Shown: one piece after another, positions 4,721-51,784 of the stretch | Numbering within the stretch: the first letter of the stretch is position 1 | Layout: every line of letters starts with the position of its first letter | DNA from: Escherichia phage phiWec188 | Sequence record: LC739537.1 | DNA: 64,000 bases | Reading direction: 5' to 3' (one strand) | Position numbers and translations under genes: made by a program | The notes under the pieces: generated by a model | Seen by the model: only the letters and a program-made list of their open reading frames with translations | The model's database searches: none | Told to the model about the DNA's origin: nothing

Positions 4721-5158
4721 ATGTTGAACGTTCCTGTTAAATTCGTCGATAGCTGTGTTAATGCTTACCAACAAACTTGTAAACGTGCCTCAAACTGTTT
4801 GCAGTCTTTGATTCAAACGCGGTACGTGATCCAAAAGAAAAGAAAGTGGTTTGGTAAGGATTCTTATAGTGTTAATGCGTTCGGGGAGTATCAACTCCAG
4901 TATGACGATAACATGCAACACATCTTAGAGTTTTTACTGATAAAAGATAAAATCTCCCCTGCGGATTACCAGTTACTTAAATTCTACGATCAGAGTTTGT
5001 CTATTGAGGAAGTTATTCAAGATATCCTTTCTCGTAAGACAGATAAGAACACTGTTGGTATTACAAACTTAGAGATGCAATTGCTCAATGAGATCTTTTT
5101 GTTTGTGGAAGATGAGTCTGTAACTAAGGAGGAGCTTTTAAATGGCTTTAAGCTATGA
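4721..5158 (+). CDS. hypothetical protein
   Basis: 145 aa ORF; gaggag RBS upstream. Confidence 0.5.
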   Translation: MLNVPVKFVDSCVNAYQQTCKRASNCLQSLIQTRYVIQKKRKWFGKDSYSVNAFGEYQLQYDDNMQHILEFLLIKDKISPADYQLLKFYDQSLSIEEVIQDILSRKTDKNTVGITNLEMQLLNEIFLFVEDESVTKEELLNGFKL

Positions 5159-5650
5159 TCGTCCAGAGTCCGATTACTATCCGACTCCGCAAAAAGCGAT
5201 TAACTCGTTATTTAGCATTATTGATTTTAAAAATTTGAAAGAGGAAGGATTTACATTTGCAGAACCGTGTAGAGGACAAGCAGCGGCTATTTACCGTCAC
5301 TTTCCTGAAGGTTCTCAGTATTGTGAGCTTGAAGAAGGTAAAGATTATTTTAGTCACGTATGGGAAAATCGTCCCGACATTATAATCACGAATCCTCCAT
5401 TCAAGCTGGCATTAGAGTTCTTGGAAAAGAGCTTGAAAGAAGCAGACGTGTCAGTCTACCTGCTTCGCCTGGGATTCCTTGAGTCAAAGAAACGTCGAGC
5501 GTTTCATCAAGAAAACCCCCTACGAATTTGATTGTACTCTCCGAACGTCCTTCGTTCGTAGCAGGTGGAACAGATAAGACAGCGTATGCTTGGTACGTAT
5601 ACGATCCAAAACAAATTTTGGGTCTAACTCAACCATTTTATTTCGTTTAA
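5142..5650 (+). CDS. putative DNA N6-adenine methyltransferase, interrupted by an apparent -1 frameshift near 5512-5520
   Basis: YYPTP and IIITNPPF motifs; ORF stops at 5531 but the -1 frame continues (LIVLSERPSFVAGGTDKTAYAWYVYD) to stop at 5650; shift falls in an A4C5 run. Confidence 0.4.
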
Positions 5651-5660
5651 GGAGCACACT

Positions 5661-5897
5661 ATGGCTAAATTTACTATGACCGTTTCTATTGATTTTGATG
5701 ATGAGGACGGAGGCATTAACTTAGGTATTGCTCAGAGCCTGGAAGGTGATTTGAACCCGACACAAGCAGCTATGGCGGTATTCTTTAAAGATACCATAAC
5801 AGTTACAGCAACACATTCTGCAAATCAAACTGTAGATTACGGTAGCATGGTTCAAGCCTTGGTTGATGCTCAAAACGGTGAAGATTGGGATGATTAA
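5661..5897 (+). CDS. hypothetical protein
   Basis: 78 aa ORF; aaggag RBS upstream. Confidence 0.5.
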   Translation: MAKFTMTVSIDFDDEDGGINLGIAQSLEGDLNPTQAAMAVFFKDTITVTATHSANQTVDYGSMVQALVDAQNGEDWDD

Positions 5898-6100
5898 TGG
5901 CTTATAATTATTATTGCGTTTACGCAAATGAAGCAAAGAAAGGCGACACTGGCACTAACGTCTATGCAGAATCAGAAACACATGCAAAAGAAATTGGTGC
6001 GATCCTTCTGTCACGTTGGACAGGTGGTAACTATTCTGCTGTGGATTTGTTCGCAGAAATGGATGATACCATCCAAGAAGATACTATCACCACAACCTGA
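5897..6100 (+). CDS. hypothetical protein
   Basis: 67 aa ORF; ATGA-type overlap with upstream gene. Confidence 0.45.
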   Translation: MAYNYYCVYANEAKKGDTGTNVYAESETHAKEIGAILLSRWTGGNYSAVDLFAEMDDTIQEDTITTT

Positions 6101-6121
6101 TATTGCTTGAAGTAGTTGGTA

Positions 6122-6152
6122 CTCTCCTTGTTTCGGCAAGGAGGGTATTTTT
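6122..6152 (+). terminator. intrinsic terminator
   Basis: ctccttgTTTCGGcaaggag hairpin followed by ggtattttt. Confidence 0.6.
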
Positions 6153-6164
6153 AAGGAGGAAGTT

Positions 6165-6356
6165 ATGCAAGAGAATGAAGAGGTAGTTGTTAAAAAGTTC
6201 CCGACACGTACACAGGCAGTCAACTTTGCTTCTGATTTGCTTGTAGATGTGGAAGGAGTTCTCATTAGACATGAAGGGGATTCCTGGAATGTCTCTTATA
6301 ACGTAAACAGATCAATTATCTATTTAGGAGAAGAGAACTTCTCTCGTATAGATTGA
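6165..6356 (+). CDS. hypothetical protein
   Basis: 63 aa ORF; aaggagg RBS upstream. Confidence 0.45.
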   Translation: MQENEEVVVKKFPTRTQAVNFASDLLVDVEGVLIRHEGDSWNVSYNVNRSIIYLGEENFSRID

Positions 6357-6370
6357 TCGAAGGAGTAGTT

Positions 6371-6943
6371 ATGCGTTCTACTTACACAGGTAAGATTAAT
6401 TCTGGTATCATTTTAGCAGTAGCAGGAATCATCAGCAAAACTTTCAAAGTGGCAAACCTACCAGAGTGTGTAGATTTTGACCACGTATTCAATCCATTAA
6501 ATCCTTCTCGTTGTGTTGTTCGTAGCAACATTGAGAATCCAAACGAGAACTTGTTTTATGTAACATCGCCTTCACAAAGTATTCTAAACCAAGTGGAGGC
6601 TAAAATTATTACCGAAGGTAGTTATTTCTCATTGCTACCTTGTAAATCGGTGGCGATTGAAGATAGTATCACCTTCGCAAATAACTTGGTCTTGACCATG
6701 TTCATGGTTTCTGATAAAGACTGTGGAGAGGATATGGTTTTAGCTGTAAGGAATGTTTATGACACATTGGGTATTGCTTATAGCTGTAAGTTGTGCGATG
6801 ATTATAAATCTTGTTCAGACTTTTACATAAATGGTGTTCGGGTATGTCGTGTTGAATCCTACTGGGTGCAAGACACATACGTAACAGTAGCGAACGTGAT
6901 CAATGAACCTATGTTCAGCCACGCTTTAGCGTTAATCATTTGA
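6371..6943 (+). CDS. hypothetical protein
   Basis: ORF 6353..6943 in track; ATG 6371 chosen because of aaggag RBS. Confidence 0.5.
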   Translation: MRSTYTGKINSGIILAVAGIISKTFKVANLPECVDFDHVFNPLNPSRCVVRSNIENPNENLFYVTSPSQSILNQVEAKIITEGSYFSLLPCKSVAIEDSITFANNLVLTMFMVSDKDCGEDMVLAVRNVYDTLGIAYSCKLCDDYKSCSDFYINGVRVCRVESYWVQDTYVTVANVINEPMFSHALALII

Positions 6944-6953
6944 GGAGGAAGGG

Positions 6954-7283
6954 ATGGAAATTACTACAGAACAGGCTCTTATCGACGAAGGGCGTAAAAT
7001 CTTAGAGAAGCATTTGGGAGATATACATCAAACCCCTGGCTACTTAGGGTGGCGCATGGTTGAAGCTGTAGATTTCCTTCCTCGCACCAAACAAGACGTT
7101 GAAATGCGTTCTCTGTTTTTGCTTGTTAAGGTAGACGGAGATACGCCTTTCAAGCTGGCAGCTTCACACATTGAGAAGGTGGAGGAGAAAGCTTATTCAG
7201 AGTTTGCCGAACTCGTATTACAGGAGGATCTCGAAGGGAAGGTAAACATTTTTATTTTTCTGGATTTTGAGGAGGAGATATGA
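6954..7283 (+). CDS. hypothetical protein
   Basis: 109 aa ORF; gaggagg RBS upstream. Confidence 0.5.
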   Translation: MEITTEQALIDEGRKILEKHLGDIHQTPGYLGWRMVEAVDFLPRTKQDVEMRSLFLLVKVDGDTPFKLAASHIEKVEEKAYSEFAELVLQEDLEGKVNIFIFLDFEEEI

Positions 7284-8017
7284 TTTTATATAAAGAGATT
7301 ACCGTGGAGCAGGATCAAGACCTCTTCATTATCGGGGACTTGCATGGTTGCTACGATCTTTACTTGAAAGGTAAGAATTATCTTGGTATCCGAGATACAG
7401 ATGTGGTTGTGTCTCTCGGAGATTTGACAGATCGTGGTAAACAAAACTTCAAATGTGTTGTAGAGTTTTGTCGCAAAGAGAATCGTTATGCTCTCTGTGG
7501 TAATCACGAAGATATGATGATTAAAGGCTTACTGGAAGGGGATCGTCGTTACTACGAATGTTGGTATCAGAATGGTGGTCATACGGTATTGGCAGAATGT
7601 GATGAAGAAGGATCTACTCTGCTCGCTACGATGGTTGAGGACAACCCTGTGATTTTGGTTGTGAACTATCGAGGTATGAAGTTAGGGTTTATTCATGGTG
7701 GATATCCTTCCTCTTTTGAATATCTTCCCCTGACAGACATACCACACCTACGTATGAGCAAAGCAAAAGAAGCTACTTTCGCTGAAGCTTTGATGTGGGA
7801 TCGTGATATGGTGGAGTGTGCCAAAGAAGGCATGAAACTTCCGGTTGTTATGGGTGTTGATTATGTGTTTCACGGGCACTCTTATGTGAAAGAACCTTTG
7901 ATCAATGCTAATCGTGTTTATATGGATACTGGGTCTGTTTTCAATAACAACTTAACGTTTGCCTATTTTGATGCAGACGGTGGACTTCAGTTTTATTCAA
8001 CTTTACAGGAGGATTAA
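7280..8017 (+). CDS. Ser/Thr protein phosphatase (lambda-PPase-like metallophosphoesterase)
   Basis: GDLHG, GDLTDRG, GNHE motifs in canonical order; 245 aa. Confidence 0.85.
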   Translation: MILYKEITVEQDQDLFIIGDLHGCYDLYLKGKNYLGIRDTDVVVSLGDLTDRGKQNFKCVVEFCRKENRYALCGNHEDMMIKGLLEGDRRYYECWYQNGGHTVLAECDEEGSTLLATMVEDNPVILVVNYRGMKLGFIHGGYPSSFEYLPLTDIPHLRMSKAKEATFAEALMWDRDMVECAKEGMKLPVVMGVDYVFHGHSYVKEPLINANRVYMDTGSVFNNNLTFAYFDADGGLQFYSTLQED

Positions 8018-8310
8018 TGTATAAAATTACAATCGTAGAATCTGTGGGCGAGATTCGTAAAGAAATTATTCTGGAGACGGAAGATCTGGAACTGGTACGT
8101 GAAATCATAATTGGGAAGGATGTAGATAAGGTTGAGTCGGACGCTCCGAATCTGATGATCGATGATCAATATGCAGAATTTCGTCGTATTTTTGAGGAGG
8201 AAAGGAAGAAGTGGGGCAAAGAACCACACGTTTTTCGTCCTTATAATCCATATCCTTCTGGTGATCCGTGGATCATGACTAACAGAAACCCGTTTGAAAT
8301 AACCTGTTGA
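8017..8310 (+). CDS. hypothetical protein
   Basis: 97 aa ORF; ATGA overlap with phosphatase gene. Confidence 0.5.
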   Translation: MYKITIVESVGEIRKEIILETEDLELVREIIIGKDVDKVESDAPNLMIDDQYAEFRRIFEEERKKWGKEPHVFRPYNPYPSGDPWIMTNRNPFEITC

Positions 8311-8318
8311 GGTGGCTT

Positions 8319-8897
8319 ATGAGCAACCTATTTTACACAGGTGTGGGAAGTCGAGAGATAACCCACGAAGAATGGGATTTAATGGTCGCTGTAGCAAAGT
8401 GGTTGGCTAACTGTGGTTTTACTTTACGTTCAGGTAATGCAAACGGTAGTGACTCTGCTTTCGAAACTGGTGTAGAAGAATCTAAAAACAAAACTCTCAA
8501 GGAGATTTATATCCCTTGGGAGAAGTTTGAAGGTAATGATATCCCAGGTGAGAAAATAGTGCTTGCTAATCCTGACAGTATGAACTATGCTATCAGTCTC
8601 CAGTGGATAAAGGAAATCCATCCAGCATTTGATAAACTTAAACAAGGTGCACGTAAATTGCATCAACGTAACGTTCATCAGGTGTTGGGACAAGACCTGG
8701 AGCATCCTGTGCCTTCCTTATTCTTATTGGCATGTTCCAAAGAGGATAAGAAGGGAGATGTTATGGGTGGAACACGGACGGCGTGGCTCATCGCTAAAGC
8801 TAATAACGTTCCATGTTTTAACTTACGTGGTAAAACAAAGGAAGAACTTTATGCTTTTCTTAAACCGTTGGTCAAGGGGGCAATCAGTGGCAATTAA
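8319..8897 (+). CDS. Rossmann-like SLOG/DprA-type protein (putative)
   Basis: ORF 8307..8897; YTGVGSR and SGNANGSDSAFETG motifs resemble the DprA/SLOG fold; start ATG 8319. Confidence 0.4.
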   Translation: MSNLFYTGVGSREITHEEWDLMVAVAKWLANCGFTLRSGNANGSDSAFETGVEESKNKTLKEIYIPWEKFEGNDIPGEKIVLANPDSMNYAISLQWIKEIHPAFDKLKQGARKLHQRNVHQVLGQDLEHPVPSLFLLACSKEDKKGDVMGGTRTAWLIAKANNVPCFNLRGKTKEELYAFLKPLVKGAISGN

Positions 8898-9411
8898 GTT
8901 AGATCGTGCAAACGTAGGTAATCGTTTTAACCTTAGTCGTATAAACGAGGACACAGATGTTACAGCAGATATTGAAAAAATCATGCAGGGTATTGTCCAT
9001 CACGGTTTGCGTTTTGCCAGAGATTTGGTAATCTTTCGTTATGACGGAGAAGATGATCGTTCAAAGAATGATGGGATTATCTTCGTAGATAAAGATTTAA
9101 CCCAAGCAGATATTGAACAGATCAACCGTTATTTTATTGGTGTAGGGGATCTTCAAGACACGCAGCTTGCACGTATGGCAGAAATTCTGGCGAATAAATT
9201 GTTGCAAGATATCGGAAAAGTTCTTGACAAAAATCCAAAACATGTTATAGTGACTATCCACAAAATGAGTTTTATTAAGTATCTTAACAAACCTGGTAAA
9301 CTGGGTTATGGGTGGATACGCACAAGTGGACCACAAACCACTCTCGAAACCGAGATGTGCTATACAATTGAAGAAGTAAAACGTGAGGAGGGAGAGAATG
9401 GCGGAATTTAA
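8885..9411 (+). CDS. hypothetical protein (start uncertain, possibly GTG)
   Basis: Track ORF 8629..9411 overlaps previous gene; GTG at 8885 follows aaggggg and gives minimal overlap. Confidence 0.35.
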
Positions 9412-9688
9412 TGAAGTGAAAAGTTACGAAAGCAACTTCGTAAGCAATTGGGAAGCATGGGATGAGATGGGTGTTGGTGAACTCTATTTCTACAATGTAA
9501 CCCTTCGTCCAGAATATCAACATCTCATTCCAGAAGGCACTGTGCAGATCGGTATGTTCATGTCTTCTCAAGACGGTGTTGTGCAGTTTGAGTTTTACTC
9601 TGACACAGAACAGAACGAATTCACTTATCGTGCATTCAATATCGTATTAGCTTTAGGAGAGGAGAAATTTTATGACGACGAAGTATAA
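9398..9688 (+). CDS. hypothetical protein
   Basis: ORF 9383..9688; ATG 9398 preceded by gaggaggg. Confidence 0.5.
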   Translation: MAEFNEVKSYESNFVSNWEAWDEMGVGELYFYNVTLRPEYQHLIPEGTVQIGMFMSSQDGVVQFEFYSDTEQNEFTYRAFNIVLALGEEKFYDDEV

Positions 9689-9869
9689 AACAGTAGCAGA
9701 AGCACTGAAAGCAGCACACGAAGCCATTGCAGAAGCTGAACAATTGGCTGATGAAACTGGCACAAGTTTTCACTTCTCAGTTGAATATGGGATGGGTGGT
9801 ACTTATGACCCAGAAGATGAGAACGAATACACTGGGACCAACTGGCACCCATCTTCCCTCGGTTGTTAA
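9672..9869 (+). CDS. hypothetical protein
   Basis: 65 aa ORF; ggagagg RBS upstream. Confidence 0.45.
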   Translation: MTTKYKTVAEALKAAHEAIAEAEQLADETGTSFHFSVEYGMGGTYDPEDENEYTGTNWHPSSLGC

Positions 9870-9883
9870 TAAGGAGAAATAAA

Positions 9884-10102
9884 ATGAGTGATCGTAATGC
9901 ACAAGCATTAGCAGACAAAGCAAAAGCTATCATGTCCTTGGTAGATGAACTTACAAAAGAAGCAGAAAAGGAAGGTTTCGGTCTTAGCTTAGAAAACAAT
10001 GCAATCTGTTTTGAAGATTGGCAATCTTCTGCTTGCTACGGCGAAGCTGATGATGGTTTCACCGTTGACTCTGACGGTGTTTGGTACAGCAGTAATTGTT
10101 AA
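9884..10102 (+). CDS. hypothetical protein
   Basis: ORF 9863..10102; ATG 9884 preceded by aaggag. Confidence 0.5.
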   Translation: MSDRNAQALADKAKAIMSLVDELTKEAEKEGFGLSLENNAICFEDWQSSACYGEADDGFTVDSDGVWYSSNC

Positions 10103-10111
10103 GGAGGGATC

Positions 10112-10381
10112 ATGTCAGAAGGTATCGCCTTAATCAAGGCAAAAGTTAAAGAGATGGAAGCATCACAACAGAAGTTCCGCAACGAGATTGAAGAACTTTG
10201 TGAGCAGTTCCAAGAACAAGCGTGGATCGGTGATTACGGGAATGGGGAAACTTATTACCCAACAGGAACAAACGCAGAAGAACATTACCTCACCTATATC
10301 TGCGGAGATTATGATGTTGAGATTGACGAAAACGGTCTGATGACCCAAGGTCTTTGGGTGTCTTCCTCGGAAATGTGCTAA
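10112..10381 (+). CDS. hypothetical protein
   Basis: 89 aa ORF; aaggaggg RBS upstream. Confidence 0.5.
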   Translation: MSEGIALIKAKVKEMEASQQKFRNEIEELCEQFQEQAWIGDYGNGETYYPTGTNAEEHYLTYICGDYDVEIDENGLMTQGLWVSSSEMC

Positions 10382-35089: not shown

Positions 35090-35557
35090 TCAGGCTCCTT
35101 TACGATTATGCAAACAATCTTTCACTCGTTCTTGCACCCACTCTACACGAAGCTTGTTTTCATGCGCTCTGCTGTGGTTATACTCTCGCACATATTCTTC
35201 GTAGTTCACATTAAAGGGAACACTGACAGACAATCCTGCGCAACGGAATTGTTTCTTCATTTCTTTTAATGTTGCATCACTTATGGCACAAAGCTGTTTT
35301 GCCTGTTCCTCACTGAAATTACGGTCCCACATCTCATCCCAGATAAAGGTATCCAAGCATACACATAACCCATTCCTTGTGCGCTCTTTGGTATGATGAT
35401 CAGCAAGCCAACTTTCATAGAAGGCTAACAACATTGGACTACTCAACGGAACATTTTTACTCTCTTGCATGATAATCTCCTCTCTTGGTTTCATGACAAA
35501 CATCGTAACTCTCAACGAGGAACATCTTACGATCAATCCTCGGCAATTACAATTCAT
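35090..35557 (-). CDS. paralog family A member 9 (start uncertain)
   Basis: LLAFYESWLA, GLCVCLDTF, VPFN, RVEWVQERV; likely starts at internal Met (MQESKN...). Confidence 0.5.
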   Translation of the reverse strand: MNCNCRGLIVRCSSLRVTMFVMKPREEIIMQESKNVPLSSPMLLAFYESWLADHHTKERTRNGLCVCLDTFIWDEMWDRNFSEEQAKQLCAISDATLKEMKKQFRCAGLSVSVPFNVNYEEYVREYNHSRAHENKLRVEWVQERVKDCLHNRKGA

Positions 35558-35814
35558 TTATCATTGGTATTCCCTATCAATTATTCCATATATACCTGTT
35601 ATTTTTGACACCCCTTTGGTCAAATATTAATCGGCAAAATATCTGGGGGGAGAGATTATTTCGATACCCTCTGTTCCTGCGATTTATCGGCAAGAATATC
35701 ATCGGCAAAGAGACAGAAAAGCCTTTGGTAGCAAGGATTTATGGCGAGTACGTCAGGACTGCTGAACGCGAATTTTCCGGCCCCTCCACTTCTGCGCGCC
35801 GGAATCTTCAAATA

Positions 35815-36020
35815 TCAATGAGAATAATTATCATTATCATTCGCATTCAATAACTTAGGCGATCTTTTCCCCTGCTATAAGGTTGGGCCTAACTTAAGCA
35901 CTACTTTTTAAACAATCCTTTATCAATCAACTACTTAACAACCTAAACATATGATTACTACGGTGTAAAGGTGCCGCCCATAACAGACTACCTATAAAAT
36001 AAATGAGAATGATTATTATT
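35815..36020. repeat. two copies of a TGAGAAT-N-ATTCTCA-type palindrome (Fur-box-like)
   Basis: atgagaataattatcattatcattcg near 35817 and aatgagaatgattattattc near 35998; same motif recurs six times at 48.85-49.07 kb. Confidence 0.45.
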
Positions 36021-36317
36021 CAGACAATTCTTACAACAAATCGACCAATAAATCAAGATTTTTCTGATTTTATTTACGTTTAAGAGAACGTGCTCAACAT
36101 ATCCGCCATAGGCGGCTATCTTTCCCCCGCAAACATTAAGCCTTTATCTTTCATCTTTCTGTATATCTGTACACTATGCAACCTGTCGCTATTCGCTCAT
36201 GTTGCTACGTGCTAATCCTTCACCATGCTAATGATGATCACACTGAACGATAGTGATAACTCATGTAATAATTACATTGATTATTATATTACGCTTAACT
36301 ATTCTTACATACAATGC

Positions 36318-36440
36318 TAATAATAAGCCAGCGTAATTAGTGTAAGCGTAATACGCTTGCAATAATTGCAAGCTACATAATCACAAGAAATAACTATCAC
36401 CGATAGTTATGATTGTGGGGGTGTAGTTGGCTTATTATTA
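36318..36440. repeat. large imperfect palindrome with a perfect 19-bp core
   Basis: gcttgcaatAattgcaagc (36355-36373) flanked by inverted 11-mers aataataagcc / ggcttattatt about 110 bp apart. Confidence 0.5.
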
Positions 36441-36519
36441 GCTCGCTACGTGTCCGGCGTAGCGTGCTAATGATGAGGCTTGGAATGATTCATTTTACAA
36501 TTATTACAGTCTTCACTAT

Positions 36520-36990
36520 TTCGGCAATAGGCACTATTTTACTAATAGTTGTTATTTTAATGATTTCATTTGTTATCGTTAGTTAGTTGGTTGTTTTGTC
36601 GTGTTATCGTTATCTTGCTTAGTATTCATCATGGTTTGATTGTTTGTCGTTATCAATCATCTTTCTATTATTCCTTTGATTATGATTAGTTTGCTTATTG
36701 TTTTAGGTTGTTGGTTGGTTAGTTGTTGCGAACTATTATCAACATTATAGTTATGCACTTATATTGCATAGATACGCAAGGTTAGATGATAATGGTTATC
36801 ATTGCACTGGAAAGGAGGAAAACAGCCTTTTTCGGTTGTTTGTTGTTGGTTGTTGATCGATTTTAACCGCTCTAAATAGCTCTCTAACAGCCTGTTGCCC
36901 TGGGAGGTATGGTTATTCGTTTGCTGGTTGATTAGCTCGATACCGCGATTTATTCATTTTTGTTCTGTGTCGGTTTTTCATAGGCGGAAG
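36520..36990. repeat. G+T-rich low-complexity region with iterated gttatcgtt / ttggttgtt motifs
   Basis: Plus strand almost devoid of C/A runs; repeated gttatcgtt, ggttggtt; no ORF of 60 aa or more across 35.85-36.9 kb. Confidence 0.5.
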
Positions 36991-37009
36991 CTATCAACAT
37001 TATTTGGAC

Positions 37010-37040
37010 AAAAAGAAAGGGCGCTTAGTGCGCCCCTTGT
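37010..37040 (-). terminator. intrinsic terminator (minus strand)
   Basis: Minus strand: ggggcgcACTAAgcgccc then tttcttttt; just 3' of gene 37052..37471. Confidence 0.7.
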
Positions 37041-37051
37041 TTTGTTGTCGA

Positions 37052-41463: not shown

Positions 41464-41649
41464 TTATTTGACTATGTGACGATCATTATATTCAGTGTAA
41501 AACTCGCAACCATCGTCACGACTATCAAGTTTAACAATGTAACCAGTTTGATAACGTTCAATAGATACCATTGCATAAAACTTACCATTCAGGATATTTC
41601 TAACCAGATCGCCTTTTACCAATTCTTTCGTTTTCTTGTAAGTAGTCAT
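41464..41649 (-). CDS. hypothetical protein
   Basis: ORF 41464..41700; ATG 41649 downstream of hairpin. Confidence 0.5.
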   Translation of the reverse strand: MTTYKKTKELVKGDLVRNILNGKFYAMVSIERYQTGYIVKLDSRDDGCEFYTEYNDRHIVK

Positions 41650-41669
41650 GATGTTTTCTCTTCTGTTAG

Positions 41670-41726
41670 GCGGGGCGCTTGTCGCCCCTATGTGATACAT
41701 CTTATCAGGTTGATTCAGCTTGTCAA
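41670..41726 (-). promoter_or_regulatory. promoter plus 5' hairpin cassette (stem variant ggggcg/cgcccc)
   Basis: TTGACA, spacer, TGATAAGAT, then ggggcgACAAGcgcccc hairpin. Confidence 0.5.
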
Positions 41727-47589: not shown

Positions 47590-47862
47590 TTACAGCAAAA
47601 AGTTTACTTGTCTTGCTGTTAATGTAGTATCAACCATTTTCGGGCTTTTATAATCCACAAAGCGCGCGGTTTTTTCAATAGCGAAACCTAAATAATCTTG
47701 CTTGTTGAAATTACATTCTTTCTTAAATGTTTCCCGCGCTACGGCGATCGCTGCGTCCAGGGATAAGCGCCCGTCAATATTGATGTTAGCGAAAGATCCG
47801 CCACCGCTCATAGGTTTGCCAGTGGTGCCAGTTACGATCATTGTTGCGCTATATGATGCCAT
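47590..47862 (-). CDS. hypothetical protein
   Basis: ORF 47590..47898; ATG 47862 follows the hairpin. Confidence 0.5.
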   Translation of the reverse strand: MASYSATMIVTGTTGKPMSGGGSFANINIDGRLSLDAAIAVARETFKKECNFNKQDYLGFAIEKTARFVDYKSPKMVDTTLTARQVNFLL

Positions 47863-47884
47863 GATGATAATCTCTCTTAGTTGT

Positions 47885-47946
47885 GAGCGGTGGACCATTC
47901 CGCCGCTCTACGTGATACATCTTATCAGGTTGTTGCGTATTGTCAA
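47885..47946 (-). promoter_or_regulatory. promoter plus 5' hairpin cassette
   Basis: TTGACA, 16 bp, TGATAAGAT, gtatcacgtag, then gagcggcggAATGGtccaccgctc hairpin. Confidence 0.55.
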
Positions 47947-47952
47947 TACTTT

Positions 47953-48150
47953 TTATTCTTCACCCGCGATACGGCGGACACGTTCGGATTTAGTAGCGTG
48001 TTGGTCTTCTGTAATGACTCCCATTTCTAACAGGGAATCAATGAAAGATAGCACCGTTTCATGATCATCTTGAGGATGACTAAATTCAGTAAAGCCGTTT
48101 ACCACTACGTTGATTTGTCCTGCTTTCGCTACTATGTGCAATGTTGCCAT
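47953..48150 (-). CDS. hypothetical protein
   Basis: ORF 47953..48240; ATG 48150 downstream of cassette. Confidence 0.5.
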   Translation of the reverse strand: MATLHIVAKAGQINVVVNGFTEFSHPQDDHETVLSFIDSLLEMGVITEDQHATKSERVRRIAGEE

Positions 48151-48169
48151 GATCTTAACTCCAGATAGT

Positions 48170-48230
48170 GAGCAGCACCATTGCCGCCCTACGTGATGAA
48201 TAGTACGCCGCCACCTGGCGAACGTCAACC
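48170..48230 (-). promoter_or_regulatory. promoter plus 5' hairpin cassette (last copy)
   Basis: TTGACG -35 variant; hairpin with one G-U pair (ggcggcAATGgtgctgc). Confidence 0.45.
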
Positions 48231-48337
48231 ACTTTTTCAATCTTTTTCATTTCTTTTTTGCTTGCTATATATAAAGGAAAGGGCTATTATCTTTCTACCG
48301 CGCCAACCAGGGCGCACAACAAAGAAAGGGCGACACC

Positions 48338-48604
48338 ATGACAACTACTACATTACACCTTATGCACTCTTTAGGCTGGCAAGGCGGCACGGTCCACCAG
48401 GTAGCAAGCGCAACGGGCTTAAAGGTTGAAACCGTTCTCACCTTGGGCGATCATAAAGTGGAAGATATAGACCATTTTGATCCGTTCGCTGATGGTTATT
48501 TATGGGCTTGCAGTGGCGGCGGTGAAAACAAGATACCGCCAGGGGCGCGGGGTGATATGTATTTTTGGTTAGGCGTTCTTGCCTGGCAAGAAGACAAAAA
48601 ATAG
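48338..48604 (+). CDS. hypothetical protein
   Basis: 88 aa ORF on plus strand; agaaaggg RBS. Confidence 0.5.
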   Translation: MTTTTLHLMHSLGWQGGTVHQVASATGLKVETVLTLGDHKVEDIDHFDPFADGYLWACSGGGENKIPPGARGDMYFWLGVLAWQEDKK

Positions 48605-48606
48605 TC

Positions 48607-48635
48607 TTGACAAGCCCAGGGATCGGGCTTATACT
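48607..48635 (+). promoter_or_regulatory. near-consensus sigma70 promoter (TTGACA-N17-TATACT) with no ORF downstream
   Basis: Perfect -35, 17-bp spacer, TATACT -10, right after the stop at 48604. Confidence 0.5.
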
Positions 48636-48649
48636 GTTTTACATACAGA

Positions 48650-48740
48650 AGAGGAAGCGCCACCCCCCACGGCGTAAAGGCGGGGCTAACATACCAGGGG
48701 CACCGGTTGGAAGGTCGATCGCCGGGAGGCTGGGCGCTAT
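48650..48740 (+). ncRNA. candidate structured small RNA (GC-rich, ends gcgcc/ggcgc can pair)
   Basis: About 90 nt of locally high GC with several self-complementary segments directly downstream of the promoter; no RBS/ATG. Confidence 0.25.
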
Positions 48741-48847
48741 ATATTTGTAAAGAAATGTAAAGATAAAATAATCGCTTGCTTTCCTGGCTGGATCTGTTAT
48801 TCTTATTACATGGCGAGGGGACACGGGAGCGCGAGATAATCACCGGA

Positions 48848-49070
48848 CCTGCCCGTCATTCTCTAAATGAGAATGATTATCATTTACCTTATTGAATAAA
48901 AATCAATCTTATTTGGATAGTTGAATGAGAATCAATCTCATTCGCAAGGTGAGAATAAATCTCATTTACGCTATTGAATGCGAATCATTCGTATTTACCA
49001 TGTTAAATGAGAATCATTATCATTCTCATTCGTATTTCGATTTTAAGTGAGAATAATTCTCATTTCGGTA
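48848..49070. repeat. six tandem copies of the TGAGAAT-N-ATTCTCA palindrome (Fur-box-like)
   Basis: aatgagaatgattatcattta, aatgagaatcaatctcattcg, ggtgagaataaatctcattta, aatgcgaatcattcgtattta, aatgagaatcattatcattctcattcg, agtgagaataattctcatttcgg. Confidence 0.55.
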
Positions 49071-49080
49071 ATTTTCACGC

Positions 49081-49330
49081 AAACTTTAGAATTTGCTTTT
49101 CAACTTTCACTTTTGTAAAAGCAAAAAAACTTTAAATACCTGGTGCGCGCGACTTTTTTAAAAATTTTTCTCGGTTTTTTGTTTTGCAATCTGGTCCACC
49201 CATTTGAGATAATGTGTGTAAACTTTAGAATTTGGTTTTGGATTCTCGTTTTTGTAAACTCATAAAAAGTTTAAATAATTGTAGGGATTTTTGAGATAGT
49301 TTGCTTGTAAGATTTGAGATAATCTTTCCT
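49081..49330. repeat. direct repeats (about 40 bp, two copies) plus three tttgagata motifs
   Basis: aaactttagaatttgcttttcaactttcacttttgtaaaagc (49081) versus aaactttagaatttggttttggattctcgtttttgtaaactc (49224); tttgagata at about 49203, 49291, 49313. Confidence 0.5.
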
Positions 49331-49517
49331 GAAGATGCTACGCAGCCTACAACCTACCTGAATGCTCGTCTAACGAGGTTAACTCTAAAAGATGAGTGTT
49401 GGTGTAGCTAAAGAGAAAAAGGCTCTCTACGGAGGTTGTAGGAGCCTTTTTCTGTGGCACAAAGTTGACGTATTCTTTTTAAAAACGAATTTTTTCAAAA
49501 TATCACGAATATCGCCT

Positions 49518-50045
49518 TTATGGTATTTTGGCTGGGAACAGGATTTTAATCAGATTGTTGTGGTATTGTCCTAAAAGATTCTGCCCTTTCCAGTTGGCAG
49601 GATTAAGCACCCCTGGTTCATACATACCCATTCCAATTCCGTAAACCTTATCGTAAGGGCTGGCCTCAACGAATGTTTTGAATTGATACAGGCGCAAGTC
49701 AGAGTAAAGATCAGGGTTCTGTGTATACTTCAAGCATAAGCCTCGCATTACGATACGCTCTCGGTGCTCTTCCCACACGTCATTATTAAAACCAGACACC
49801 GCTCGACCCATACGTTTGTAGTACGCCTGTCCCTTCTCGTCGTCACGCTTCATTGAGTGATAAAGGATAGCTGCTGCGATTACCTGATCCTTGAACAGCA
49901 AAGCCTTACGCCACATCATGTATTGCTCTACACAACAGAAAGTGTCACTGTACCCTGGTTCCGTCTCTGTAAATGGCGCAATGTACCAATTGCTAAACAC
50001 ATCTTTATGTGAAAAGAAGAATACATATTCATCAGTTATTCGCAT
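49518..50045 (-). CDS. NADAR-domain protein (YbiA/DUF1768-like)
   Basis: 175 aa; FSNW, VEQYMMWRKA, NLLGQY segments parallel the conserved NADAR blocks of E. coli YbiA. Confidence 0.6.
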   Translation of the reverse strand: MRITDEYVFFFSHKDVFSNWYIAPFTETEPGYSDTFCCVEQYMMWRKALLFKDQVIAAAILYHSMKRDDEKGQAYYKRMGRAVSGFNNDVWEEHRERIVMRGLCLKYTQNPDLYSDLRLYQFKTFVEASPYDKVYGIGMGMYEPGVLNPANWKGQNLLGQYHNNLIKILFPAKIP

Positions 50046-50256
50046 TTTTCATACCTCTTAAGACTTCAGCTTGCCCGTCTTGAAAAGCTTTCATCAGAAC
50101 TATCTTAAGATTGACTTCCAAGCGTTCTTCATCCTCTTTATAACAATCCAACACTGCCTTAAGTTCATTATAGTGGTTCAGAATAGGTTTAAAGATTTCA
50201 TGATCTGCTAAACGTGCCATAGTTTCTCCTTTGTTAGTCCATCCACCAGTAGCCAT
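50032..50256 (-). CDS. hypothetical protein
   Basis: 74 aa ORF. Confidence 0.45.
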   Translation of the reverse strand: MATGGWTNKGETMARLADHEIFKPILNHYNELKAVLDCYKEDEERLEVNLKIVLMKAFQDGQAEVLRGMKNANN

Positions 50257-50599
50257 AAACTGCGTCTGCGTCGATGAGTTTGTGTTTGTTGTTCCGCATG
50301 TAGTCTAAGATAAGTAGACGTTTATTGTATCTGGAGAGATTATGACCCTCTTTTCCGCCATAGTCAAAATATTTTGCAAGATCTTTACACTCAAACAAAA
50401 TCAGTTCTGGAGTTTCTTCACATTGGTCTGTCTGGTACACTTGACGGATGATCATGTATACGTCATCGTCTTCCGTTAAGTGCTCTACTGGTCCACACCC
50501 AGCAGGAATAAATTCATAGTCCCATCGAATCAGATGTTTCTCTACTGCTTCAAAGAAATCCATTTTTTCGTTACGCATGATTTGAACATCAACTAACAT
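50234..50599 (-). CDS. hypothetical protein
   Basis: 121 aa ORF; ggaggaaa RBS. Confidence 0.5.
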   Translation of the reverse strand: MLVDVQIMRNEKMDFFEAVEKHLIRWDYEFIPAGCGPVEHLTEDDDVYMIIRQVYQTDQCEETPELILFECKDLAKYFDYGGKEGHNLSRYNKRLLILDYMRNNKHKLIDADAVYGYWWMD

Positions 50600-50644
50600 A
50601 ATTTTCCTCCGTATATGAGAAATGCCCCTTGCGGGGCATCTTTA

Positions 50645-51784
50645 TCAGAACACACTGCTCAGTGTTGCAGATCGTGTAGTGGTTGGTTCCAGAACCACGC
50701 GGAACGTATCTCCAGGTTTATCGCTCACTACTACAATCTTACCACCTTCAATCAGGTCACACTTCAAACCTTCGGCGGTAGCTTTCAGGTCGATGCGTGG
50801 ATCACCATCATCATCCAGGATGACGTAGCTGCTATCTTCGAGAGGCTCCAGTTCTTCGTCCTTCACTGCTTCCAGGTAGATGTTCAGTTCACATGCACCA
50901 GACAAGAACTTGGTAGGAGTGAACTCATGCCAGTTGTTGACCCAGTTAGGCTTGATAGCTTTACCGTTGACAACAATAGAGCTAATCGTCCAGCGTGCAT
51001 CGTTACCCAGAGAGATACCCATCATCTCCAGACAGGTCTTGAACGTCATTTTCGGATAGAAGTTTAACTCTTCTACGATCCCTTGAATAACATCGAAAGA
51101 CAGTTCAGTGCTAACATCCCACAAACGTTGGAAGCTTTCAACATGTTTGCGATTCTTCAGATTCTTGTCCAAGTAGTCCAGCATAGTTTCAATAGACAGC
51201 TTGTCGTAGTTGAAGCTATAGAAGATACGGCTCGGACGGTTGACGAAGTATTCCGAGATGTATCCACTGTTCTTTGTCAGCATGAACAGTTTGTTACCGC
51301 TACCTGTGCCATCCAGCAGAGTCAGCAGTGCTTCCTGATCTTCCTTCTTGGAATACACTTTGTCGAACTCATCGAACAGTACTACTGCGCGTTCAGAGAT
51401 CTTACTCATGAACTCCAGGAAGTTGGCATCAGAATATGGCTGCGTTACCAGAATAGTTGGGATTCCCAGGTCTTCCGCTTCCAACAGAGTGTTACTGATC
51501 AGTTTTGCCAGCATTGTCTTGCCACTGCCTTTTGTACCCGACAACAGGACACCTGTGTTCTTACCTTCTTTACTACGACGAGCGAAGGTACGGATAACGT
51601 GGGCTGCACGTTCTTTGGTTTCCCCGTACAGGCGATCAGGAATCGTGAACTTATCAGCACGACTAAGAGAGTAGTTACCATGTGGATCACAATTGACAGT
51701 CCAAACGCCAGCGGGGAGTTTATCAACCTCTACACCGAAGTCTTTATTAACAATAGCAACATCCCCGTACACTGTGTATTTCAT
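50645..51784 (-). CDS. AAA+ family ATPase
   Basis: 379 aa; Walker A GTKGSGKT, Walker B VVLFDEFDK; agaggagag RBS. Confidence 0.75.
   Translation of the reverse strand: MKYTVYGDVAIVNKDFGVEVDKLPAGVWTVNCDPHGNYSLSRADKFTIPDRLYGETKERAAHVIRTFARRSKEGKNTGVLLSGTKGSGKTMLAKLISNTLLEAEDLGIPTILVTQPYSDANFLEFMSKISERAVVLFDEFDKVYSKKEDQEALLTLLDGTGSGNKLFMLTKNSGYISEYFVNRPSRIFYSFNYDKLSIETMLDYLDKNLKNRKHVESFQRLWDVSTELSFDVIQGIVEELNFYPKMTFKTCLEMMGISLGNDARWTISSIVVNGKAIKPNWVNNWHEFTPTKFLSGACELNIYLEAVKDEELEPLEDSSYVILDDDGDPRIDLKATAEGLKCDLIEGGKIVVVSDKPGDTFRVVLEPTTTRSATLSSVF

Follow-up and report, generated by a model that had tools for sequence, protein, structure and literature searches.

Clustered candidate binding sites for the host iron regulator Fur in gene-free early DNA of Escherichia phage phiWec188 and other virulent phages

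A palindrome array in the early region

We analyzed a 64,000-nucleotide stretch of Escherichia phage phiWec188 (LC739537.1; the window hereafter), in which a cluster of short palindromes resembling the binding sites of the host iron regulator Fur occupies DNA devoid of annotated genes. The whole window is 99.95-99.99% identical to phage phiWec190 (LC739539.1; Phapecoctavirus, Stephanstirmvirinae), and its segment 48300-49700 matches phiWec190 on the reverse strand. The array is housed in a gap without open reading frames (ORFs), 48605-49517. The small genes around this gap all lie on the window's - strand, and most of them are preceded by a predicted promoter of their own of the TTGACA-17-TAAGAT type, suggesting that the region constitutes early DNA transcribed by the host polymerase. 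The array, its units and its neighbours are as follows, with scores in bits from a matrix of E. coli Fur sites described below.

48338-48604, + strand: gene for an 88-amino-acid (88-aa) protein of unknown function, left neighbour of the gap
48862-49068: whole array, seven repeat units of ~29 bp, each centred on a 7-1-7 palindrome
48868-48882: unit 1, TGAGAATGATTATCA, overlapping 21-mers of 21.6 and 19.1 bits
48897-48911: unit 2, TAAAAATCAATCTTA, weak copy, 13.8 bits
48926-48940: unit 3, TGAGAATCAATCTCA, 18.0 bits
48950-48964: unit 4, TGAGAATAAATCTCA, 18.5 bits
48979-48993: unit 5, TGCGAATCATTCGTA, degenerate copy, below 11.7 bits
49008-49028: unit 6, TGAGAATCATTATCATTCTCA, two 7-1-7 motifs offset by 6 bp as in a classic extended Fur box, 24.1 bits
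49048-49062: unit 7, TGAGAATAATTCTCA, perfect palindrome, 19.1 bits
48868-49025: 82-nt tandem duplication, 1.9 copies
49518-50045: gene for a NADAR-domain protein, last gene of the leftward early operon, right neighbour of the gap

The initial annotation, made from the sequence alone, had recorded six tandem palindromes at this position; the cluster itself is borne out, but it comprises seven units, five of them strong, one weak and one degenerate. The strong 15-mers start at 48868, 48926, 48950, 49008 (overlapped by another at 49014) and 49048, and the units follow one another at centre-to-centre distances of 29, 29, 24, 29, 29 and 40 bp. A repeat search together with Tandem Repeats Finder (TRF) resolved the array into units of ~29-30 nt plus the 82-nt tandem duplication, and this duplication (82-86 bp) accounts for the three extra units of phiWec190 with respect to its four-unit relatives phAPEC8, ukendt, Schickermooser and phiWec179.

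The array is accompanied by a second set of sites about 13 kb away, in another non-coding gap (35471-37051). Two distal copies had been noted initially, at about 35817 and 35998, and both are found, at 35819 and 36004; a third conserved site, at 36787-36801, had been missed. The assertion that the copies lie in non-coding DNA holds for every one of them, since all copies at both loci fall outside annotated genes.

35819-35841: distal site A, TGAGAATAATTATCATTATCATT, 26.8 bits (highest of the genome), three overlapping boxes shifted by a hexamer
36002-36020: distal site B, AATGAGAATGATTATTATT, 20.6 bits, matching the Fur box of E. coli ryhB at all 19 nt
36787-36801: distal site C, TGATAATGGTTATCA, 15.9 bits, kept in phAPEC8 and phiWec181

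The position and spacing of the distal sites are preserved in phAPEC8 and phiWec181, where they form islands of 0.9 identity within flanks of 0.24-0.6. The same contrast is seen for site B against phAPEC8 (an island of 0.9 identity, flanks of 0.24-0.6), and the flanks of this site are unlike those of ryhB, which makes a captured promoter unlikely. A Pfam search of the nine genes flanking this second locus for iron-related functions returned no matches.

The second gap presents several other features. A short GC hairpin (36103-36115) differs in its stem among phiWec190, phAPEC8 and phiWec181, possibly through compensating changes, and a perfect 15-nt inverted repeat (GCTAATAATAAGCCA/TGGCTTATTATTAGC; 36316-36442) has its arms 97 nt apart. 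The gap also contains a strongly conserved block at 36044-36100 and direct repeats rich in GTTGGTT at 36570-36862.

Resemblance to Escherichia coli Fur operators

Pattern searches of the window point to both loci. The motif TGAGAATNATTCTCA, with up to three mismatches, matches 15 times against 5.9 expected; seven of the matches fall within the array (48868-49062), and the distal locus contributes the pair at 35819 and 36004 and a weaker pair at 36727 and 36787. With the same tolerance of up to three mismatches, the 19-mer that is canonical for E. coli Fur, GATAATGATAATCATTATC, matches four times against 0 expected, and all four matches are in the two loci. The consensus of nine phage sites is AAATGAGAATCATTCTCATTT.

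To compare these sites with genuine host operators, we took 200 kb of E. coli K-12 sequence in which eight well-known promoters under Fur control are located, and built a position weight matrix from the best published-consensus match in each of the eight, with no phage input. Scanning of the window with this K-12 matrix, which was the check proposed initially, placed the top 11 matches in the two loci and yielded 13 sites of at least 15 bits, compared to 0.66 in dinucleotide shuffles. In the whole 150-kb phiWec190 genome, the sites of at least 16 bits all lie within the two gaps. Furthermore, shuffling of the 223-bp array alone (GC fraction of 0.305) gave an expectation of 0.03 units of at least 15 bits against the five observed, and none of 1000 such shuffles reached five.

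The reciprocal analysis recovered known Fur promoters. A matrix derived from the nine phage sites, applied to the 200 kb of K-12, ranked ryhB first, followed by fecA, fecI, fhuA, entC and fepD-entS, and 7 of its 9 top non-redundant matches fell in Fur promoters, which make up less than 1% of the DNA scanned. The phage sites score from 18 to 26.8 bits, equal to or higher than the K-12 training sites (15.4-22.2 bits). They match the Fur consensus in both its 7-1-7 (TGATAATnATTATCA) and 19-bp (GATAATGATAATCATTATC) forms, and they include overlapping sites of the NATWAT type shifted by 6 bp, with two 15-mers in 49008-49028 and three in 35819-35841. The initial annotation had described a Fur-box-like core with deviant GAGAAT half-sites. 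The likeness is upheld by these comparisons, whereas the supposed deviation is not, because the native E. coli Fur sites at ryhB, fecI, feoA and fhuA use GAGAAT as well.

Among the functions first suggested for the palindromes, that of operators for the host iron regulator is hence the one supported, at the level of sequence, by the reciprocal matrix tests, and we consider it likely that host Fur binds the sites of the array. With the E. coli Fur operators at ryhB, fecI, fhuA, entC and fepD-entS, to which the aerobactin iucA promoter may be added as another example, these sites share the 7-1-7/19-bp consensus, the sub-sites shifted by 6 bp and the GAGAAT/GATAAT half-sites. Three differences stand out. 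The E. coli operators present one or two units per promoter in the 200 kb of K-12, compared to five to seven within ~200 bp in the phage; the array does not lie over a recognisable -35/-10; and it belongs to a virulent phage, with no iron-related gene downstream.

Arrays in T5 and other phages

A blastn search with the array alone matched 369 phage records. Matrix scans showed that clusters, of variable size, extend to other Stephanstirmvirinae and to Vequintavirinae: besides the four-unit relatives named above, they located clusters in muut (Justusliebigvirus), a Pantoea Certrevirus and the rV5-like JES2013, one to two sites in an Erwinia Henunavirus, and four to six sites each in T5 and in the T5-like phages IrisVonRoten and HdH2. 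The T5-like arrays are 67-68% identical to the phiWec190 array over ~190 bp (blastn). A number of records assigned to Campylobacter, Pseudomonas or Acinetobacter phages share 85-95% identity with these coliphages in the queried region, and their host labels look doubtful.

In T5 (NC_005859), the six-site array spans 9558-9709, inside the annotated injection stop signal (9140-10149). DnaA boxes lie immediately to its left; on its right, after ~20 nt, come a GC hairpin (9729-9746) and the annotated major nick (9748/9749). A terminator flanks the array, which is located at a physical boundary of the genome. The shear point of T5 has been calculated at 9618 in AY587007 coordinates (Davison), in the same small region as the array. 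In a 2020 preprint on the stop signal and in a 2026 preprint, this DNA figures only as repeats and palindromes, not as Fur boxes. Its 'Repeat Region 3', composed of the DRC repeats and palE/G/H/I/J (Wang 2005; Davison), consists of the same type of unit as the array described here, with a repeat unit TTAAATGAGAATCATTATCATTyGCATT and a spacing of 23-46 bp. The T5 stop signal and the phiWec190 array are both ORF-free, both follow an early-gene block (very early in T5) and both lie by a terminator. The T5 array is associated with a terminal repeat, paired DnaA boxes, a 7.9% nick and a two-step injection; the phiWec190 array, unlike that of T5, has no DnaA boxes nearby.

The motif extends to metagenomic phages. 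An exact-pattern scan of IMG/VR returned at least 120 contigs; among the matches listed, 20 contigs have 3-7 units within 300 bp, and the top seven of these, also among the matches listed, have 4-7 units and GC contents of 21-52%. At the protein level, no similarity was detected between these seven contigs and either phiWec190 or the T5-like terminal-repeat segments sampled. For several of the seven arrays, a terminase gene lies a few kb away at most and a likely genome end is close by, and in GC-rich contigs (~52%) the boxes appear as AT islands. The presence of the same motif in unrelated phages suggests that the shared partner is host Fur, with its widely conserved box.

Sites for host regulators occur in other phages, as exemplified by the Fur-regulated stx1 promoter and by the NtcA and PhoB boxes of cyanophages. 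In lambdoid prophages, a Fur box is located upstream of sitABCD (PMC6969025). These cases resemble the array in placing sites for a host global regulator in a phage genome, but they are single operators at the promoters of cargo genes, mostly in temperate phages, whereas the array occupies non-coding DNA of virulent phages and has no regulated cargo gene. Fur boxes are thus known, as are phages that borrow host regulators; we did not find a description of Fur-box arrays in the gene-less early DNA of virulent phages. Our literature searches for Fur-box arrays in T5-like, rV5-like or lytic phages found none, nor any identification of the T5 stop-signal palindromes as Fur boxes, with incomplete coverage that leaves room for an earlier description.

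Flanking signals and candidate functions

Within its gap, the array is bracketed by transcription signals, as listed here.

48607-48635, + strand: strong predicted sigma-70-type promoter directed toward the array, TTGACA-17-TATACT (11/12)
48641-48861, + strand: conserved non-coding leader/RNA between promoter and array
49081-49277, + strand: AT-rich block right of the array, with two copies of a 58-nt repeat and an extended -10 promoter
49184-49213: the predicted extended -10 promoter, TTGCAA-18-TGaGATAAT
49414-49453: bidirectional hairpin terminator

The TTGACA-17-TATACT promoter, 210 bp upstream of the array, is invariant in five Phapecoctavirus genomes, and together with the ~230 nt that follow it shows almost no variation among five genomes whose divergence elsewhere is ~15%. 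Its spacer also forms a hairpin that could terminate the upstream 88-aa gene. Indels of 1-2 nt in a C-run rule out that the leader is coding. The leader is recognisable upstream of arrays in Justusliebigvirus (87% identity) and in three Vequintavirinae genera with Pantoea, Erwinia and E. coli hosts (72-75% identity), so that a leader-plus-array module is common to two subfamilies. Rfam searches of the whole window at gathering thresholds, and of 48550-49520 at permissive E-values, gave only noise, and no tRNAs were found in the window. The folded transcript of the strong promoter is not unusually stable (z = +0.83). Predicted hairpins of the leader are conserved, with sequence variation too scant for a covariation test. 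The segment 48607-48861 is probably an undescribed conserved phage non-coding RNA.

Downstream of the array, the terminator closes the leftward early operon, of which the NADAR gene is the last, as well as any rightward transcript crossing the array. The 58-nt repeat of the AT-rich block (AAACTTTAGAATTTG...TTTGTAAA...CTTTAAATA) occupies 49081-49138 and 49220-49277, and three copies of TTTGAGATAxT also lie right of the array (the listed segments include 49290-49326). The elements of this block face the terminator and could yield rightward RNAs of ~120-230 nt.

The sites match real Fur operators and are conserved, and the leader-plus-array module is conserved as well. From the promoter and leader upstream and the AT-rich block and terminator downstream, we propose, tentatively, that the array is a high-affinity cluster of host Fur sites acting as an iron-dependent barrier in cis; Fur binding, and the blocking of transcription by it, are what we infer. 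In the presence of iron, Fe2+-Fur dimers would fill the five to seven boxes as well as the overlapping sub-sites shifted by 6 bp, and, because Fur multimerises along DNA, ~200 bp of ORF-free DNA would be coated. Active Fur would thereby limit or insulate transcription across the spacer, while an iron-starved host would let transcription through. The three single sites of the second gap may act in the same manner in the long untranslated stretch that precedes the next early-gene block. The positional conservation of the distal sites, the boundary position of the T5 array and the leader context favour a role in cis, and a barrier of this kind may be the main function of the array, although we advance this with less than even confidence.

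Several observations weigh against this explanation. No credible promoter was found inside the arrays of phiWec190 and T5 on either strand; the best promoter match in the array is 9/12, with the Fur box itself as the -10, and none reaches 10/12. Overlap with the -35/-10 is typical of Fur operators, albeit not defining, and the usual geometry of Fur repression is therefore absent, so that 'operator', the term used initially, applies to the match with Fur sites but not in its classical sense. A hand-found candidate promoter at distal site A, TTGAAT-18-TATTCT, was discarded, as phAPEC8 does not conserve it. The transcription start sites of the array region are predicted ones, and to our knowledge Fur has not been established as a roadblock within transcribed DNA. 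Finally, the number of units ranges from 4 to 7 among close relatives via tandem duplication, and such variability fits a dosage or titration role better than it fits a precisely placed operator.

This last point bears on a second explanation, which we consider possible but rather unlikely: that the boxes regulate nothing nearby and act in trans, with replicated genomes titrating Fur and derepressing the host Fur regulon as a natural version of the Fur titration assay. With ~10 units per genome, the resulting derepression of iron uptake, RyhB-mediated iron sparing and nrdHIEF would supply iron and deoxynucleoside triphosphates (dNTPs) for the phage's own iron-dependent NrdAB, and the phage does encode nrdA and nrdB. 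The array has many strong sites, no overlapping promoter and no gene immediately downstream, its unit number shifts fast through duplication, and unrelated phages appear to have gained arrays independently. Some 10 units, each taking up at least two dimers, in 100-200 genome copies would approach the reported 5,000-10,000 Fur monomers per cell. Titration by binding sites is exemplified by the E. coli datA locus (for DnaA) and the P1 incA iterons. For Fur, multicopy plasmids served to establish the titration principle (Stojiljkovic 1994, as described in PMC2189734). These elements, including the plasmids of the Fur titration assay, are likewise high-affinity clusters that exert an effect through copy number and not through a neighbouring promoter; the phage array differs from them in being linked in cis to a conserved transcription unit, and titration is in its case only proposed.

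Titration is, however, hard to reconcile with the location of the arrays in the earliest-expressed DNA, when a single incoming genome offers too few sites for thousands of Fur molecules. Moreover, T5 degrades host DNA within minutes (2026 preprint), and derepression of the host consequently cannot be the purpose of the array in T5. The distal sites, in turn, keep their exact position and spacing, and the array is tied to a conserved leader across subfamilies, indicating a constraint in cis.

A third explanation is an architectural or DNA-handling element, in which bound Fur, possibly with other host proteins, serves as a clamp or boundary that pauses DNA entry (as at the first-step-transfer boundary of T5), blocks the spreading of H-NS or marks a site for packaging or recombination. 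The situation in T5, with the array inside the injection stop signal, beside DnaA boxes, hairpin and nick and near the calculated shear point, is in agreement with such a function, as is the proximity of metagenomic arrays to terminase genes and likely genome ends. At E. coli ftnA, upstream Fur sites counteract silencing by H-NS. Nevertheless, phiWec190 has two loci 13 kb apart inside its early region, no DnaA boxes near its array and, in the data considered here, no sign of fixed ends or staged injection for its group; and Fur is inactive in iron-starved cells, precisely when the T5 receptor FhuA is most abundant. We therefore deem this role improbable for the array.

Still less probable is that the palindromes are operators of a phage-encoded DNA-binding protein with Fur-like specificity, an option that had been raised at the outset and that the following results weaken. 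Most phage genes here have no known function, and the conserved 88-aa gene (48338-48604) adjoins the array in all Stephanstirmvirinae examined. Our screen for repressor candidates covered Fur homologues and this adjacent 88-aa protein. No Fur homologue was detected in the phage by tblastn with E. coli Fur as query (best E-value of 0.43). The 88-aa protein contains a helix-turn-helix-like stretch, but its confident structural model matches no DNA-binding fold, which speaks against a repressor. The gene is present only in this phage group (148 records, none of them T5-like), whereas T5-like phages carry the same arrays without it, and the motif also recurs in contigs for which no proteins in common with phiWec190 or with the T5-like terminal-repeat segments sampled were detected.

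A role in replication, with the repeats serving as iterons or otherwise belonging to a phage origin, appears very unlikely and was not sustained. The array does lie beside the most AT-rich stretch of its neighbourhood (GC fraction of 0.318 at 49000-49399), and T5-like arrays adjoin DnaA boxes. Yet its units are palindromic instead of directional and irregularly spaced (24-40 bp), no sites resembling the DnaA box TTATCCACA occur from 47651 to 51681, the gap included, its neighbours are the NADAR protein and small unknown proteins with no replication gene among them, and there is no skew inflection at the array. T5 origins, in addition, map near the genome centre (Davison).

Least credible of all is an array that acts as RNA, each palindrome forming a hairpin in the transcript of the upstream promoter: a strong promoter is indeed aimed at the array and any palindrome can fold, but the half-sites vary independently at the single variable palindrome position (GC 10, GA 7, TC 4, TA 3) with no covariation (13 paired combinations observed compared to 12.7 expected), a pattern expected of a protein that binds DNA as a dimer but not of an RNA stem, the Fur consensus is retained in otherwise unrelated lineages, and there is no Rfam match.

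Returning to binding by host Fur, a broader and more speculative possibility, to which we assign a low likelihood, is that Fur-box arrays represent a widespread, unrecognised class of cis elements in virulent phages (T5-like, rV5-like, phAPEC8-like and unrelated metagenomic ones), by which phages would put the abundant iron sensor of the host to a use other than ordinary promoter repression: either to clamp or gate whatever DNA enters or is transcribed first, or to serve as a sponge. The T5 array would then be the missing protein-binding part of the stop signal, and two-step transfer would be Fur-dependent. If host Fur does bind, it would be the first protein other than DnaA to be named as a candidate partner of the T5 stop-signal repeats and palindromes, and large virulent coliphages such as T5 and the rV5-like and phAPEC8-like phages would read or manipulate the iron status of their host. 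These are therapy and model phages in which the array element is unannotated. Since iron limitation is the normal state in an infected animal host, an iron-gated early programme could affect phage performance in vivo.

Outside the two gaps, the early region displays a further repeated element. Between ~42000 and 48230, on the - strand, most small early genes have a TTGACA-17-TAAGAT/TAAACT promoter of their own, and between it and the ribosome-binding site lies a conserved 5' hairpin, GTAGGGCGGCAATGGTGCCGCTCAC; the two form a repeated promoter-leader cassette. At a junction in the window (41645-41697), ~800 bp of the phiWec190 record (129123-129921) are missing, and a 53-nt direct repeat at this junction suggests a deletion by recombination between promoter-leader cassettes. 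The ends of the phiWec190 record overlap by 148 nt.
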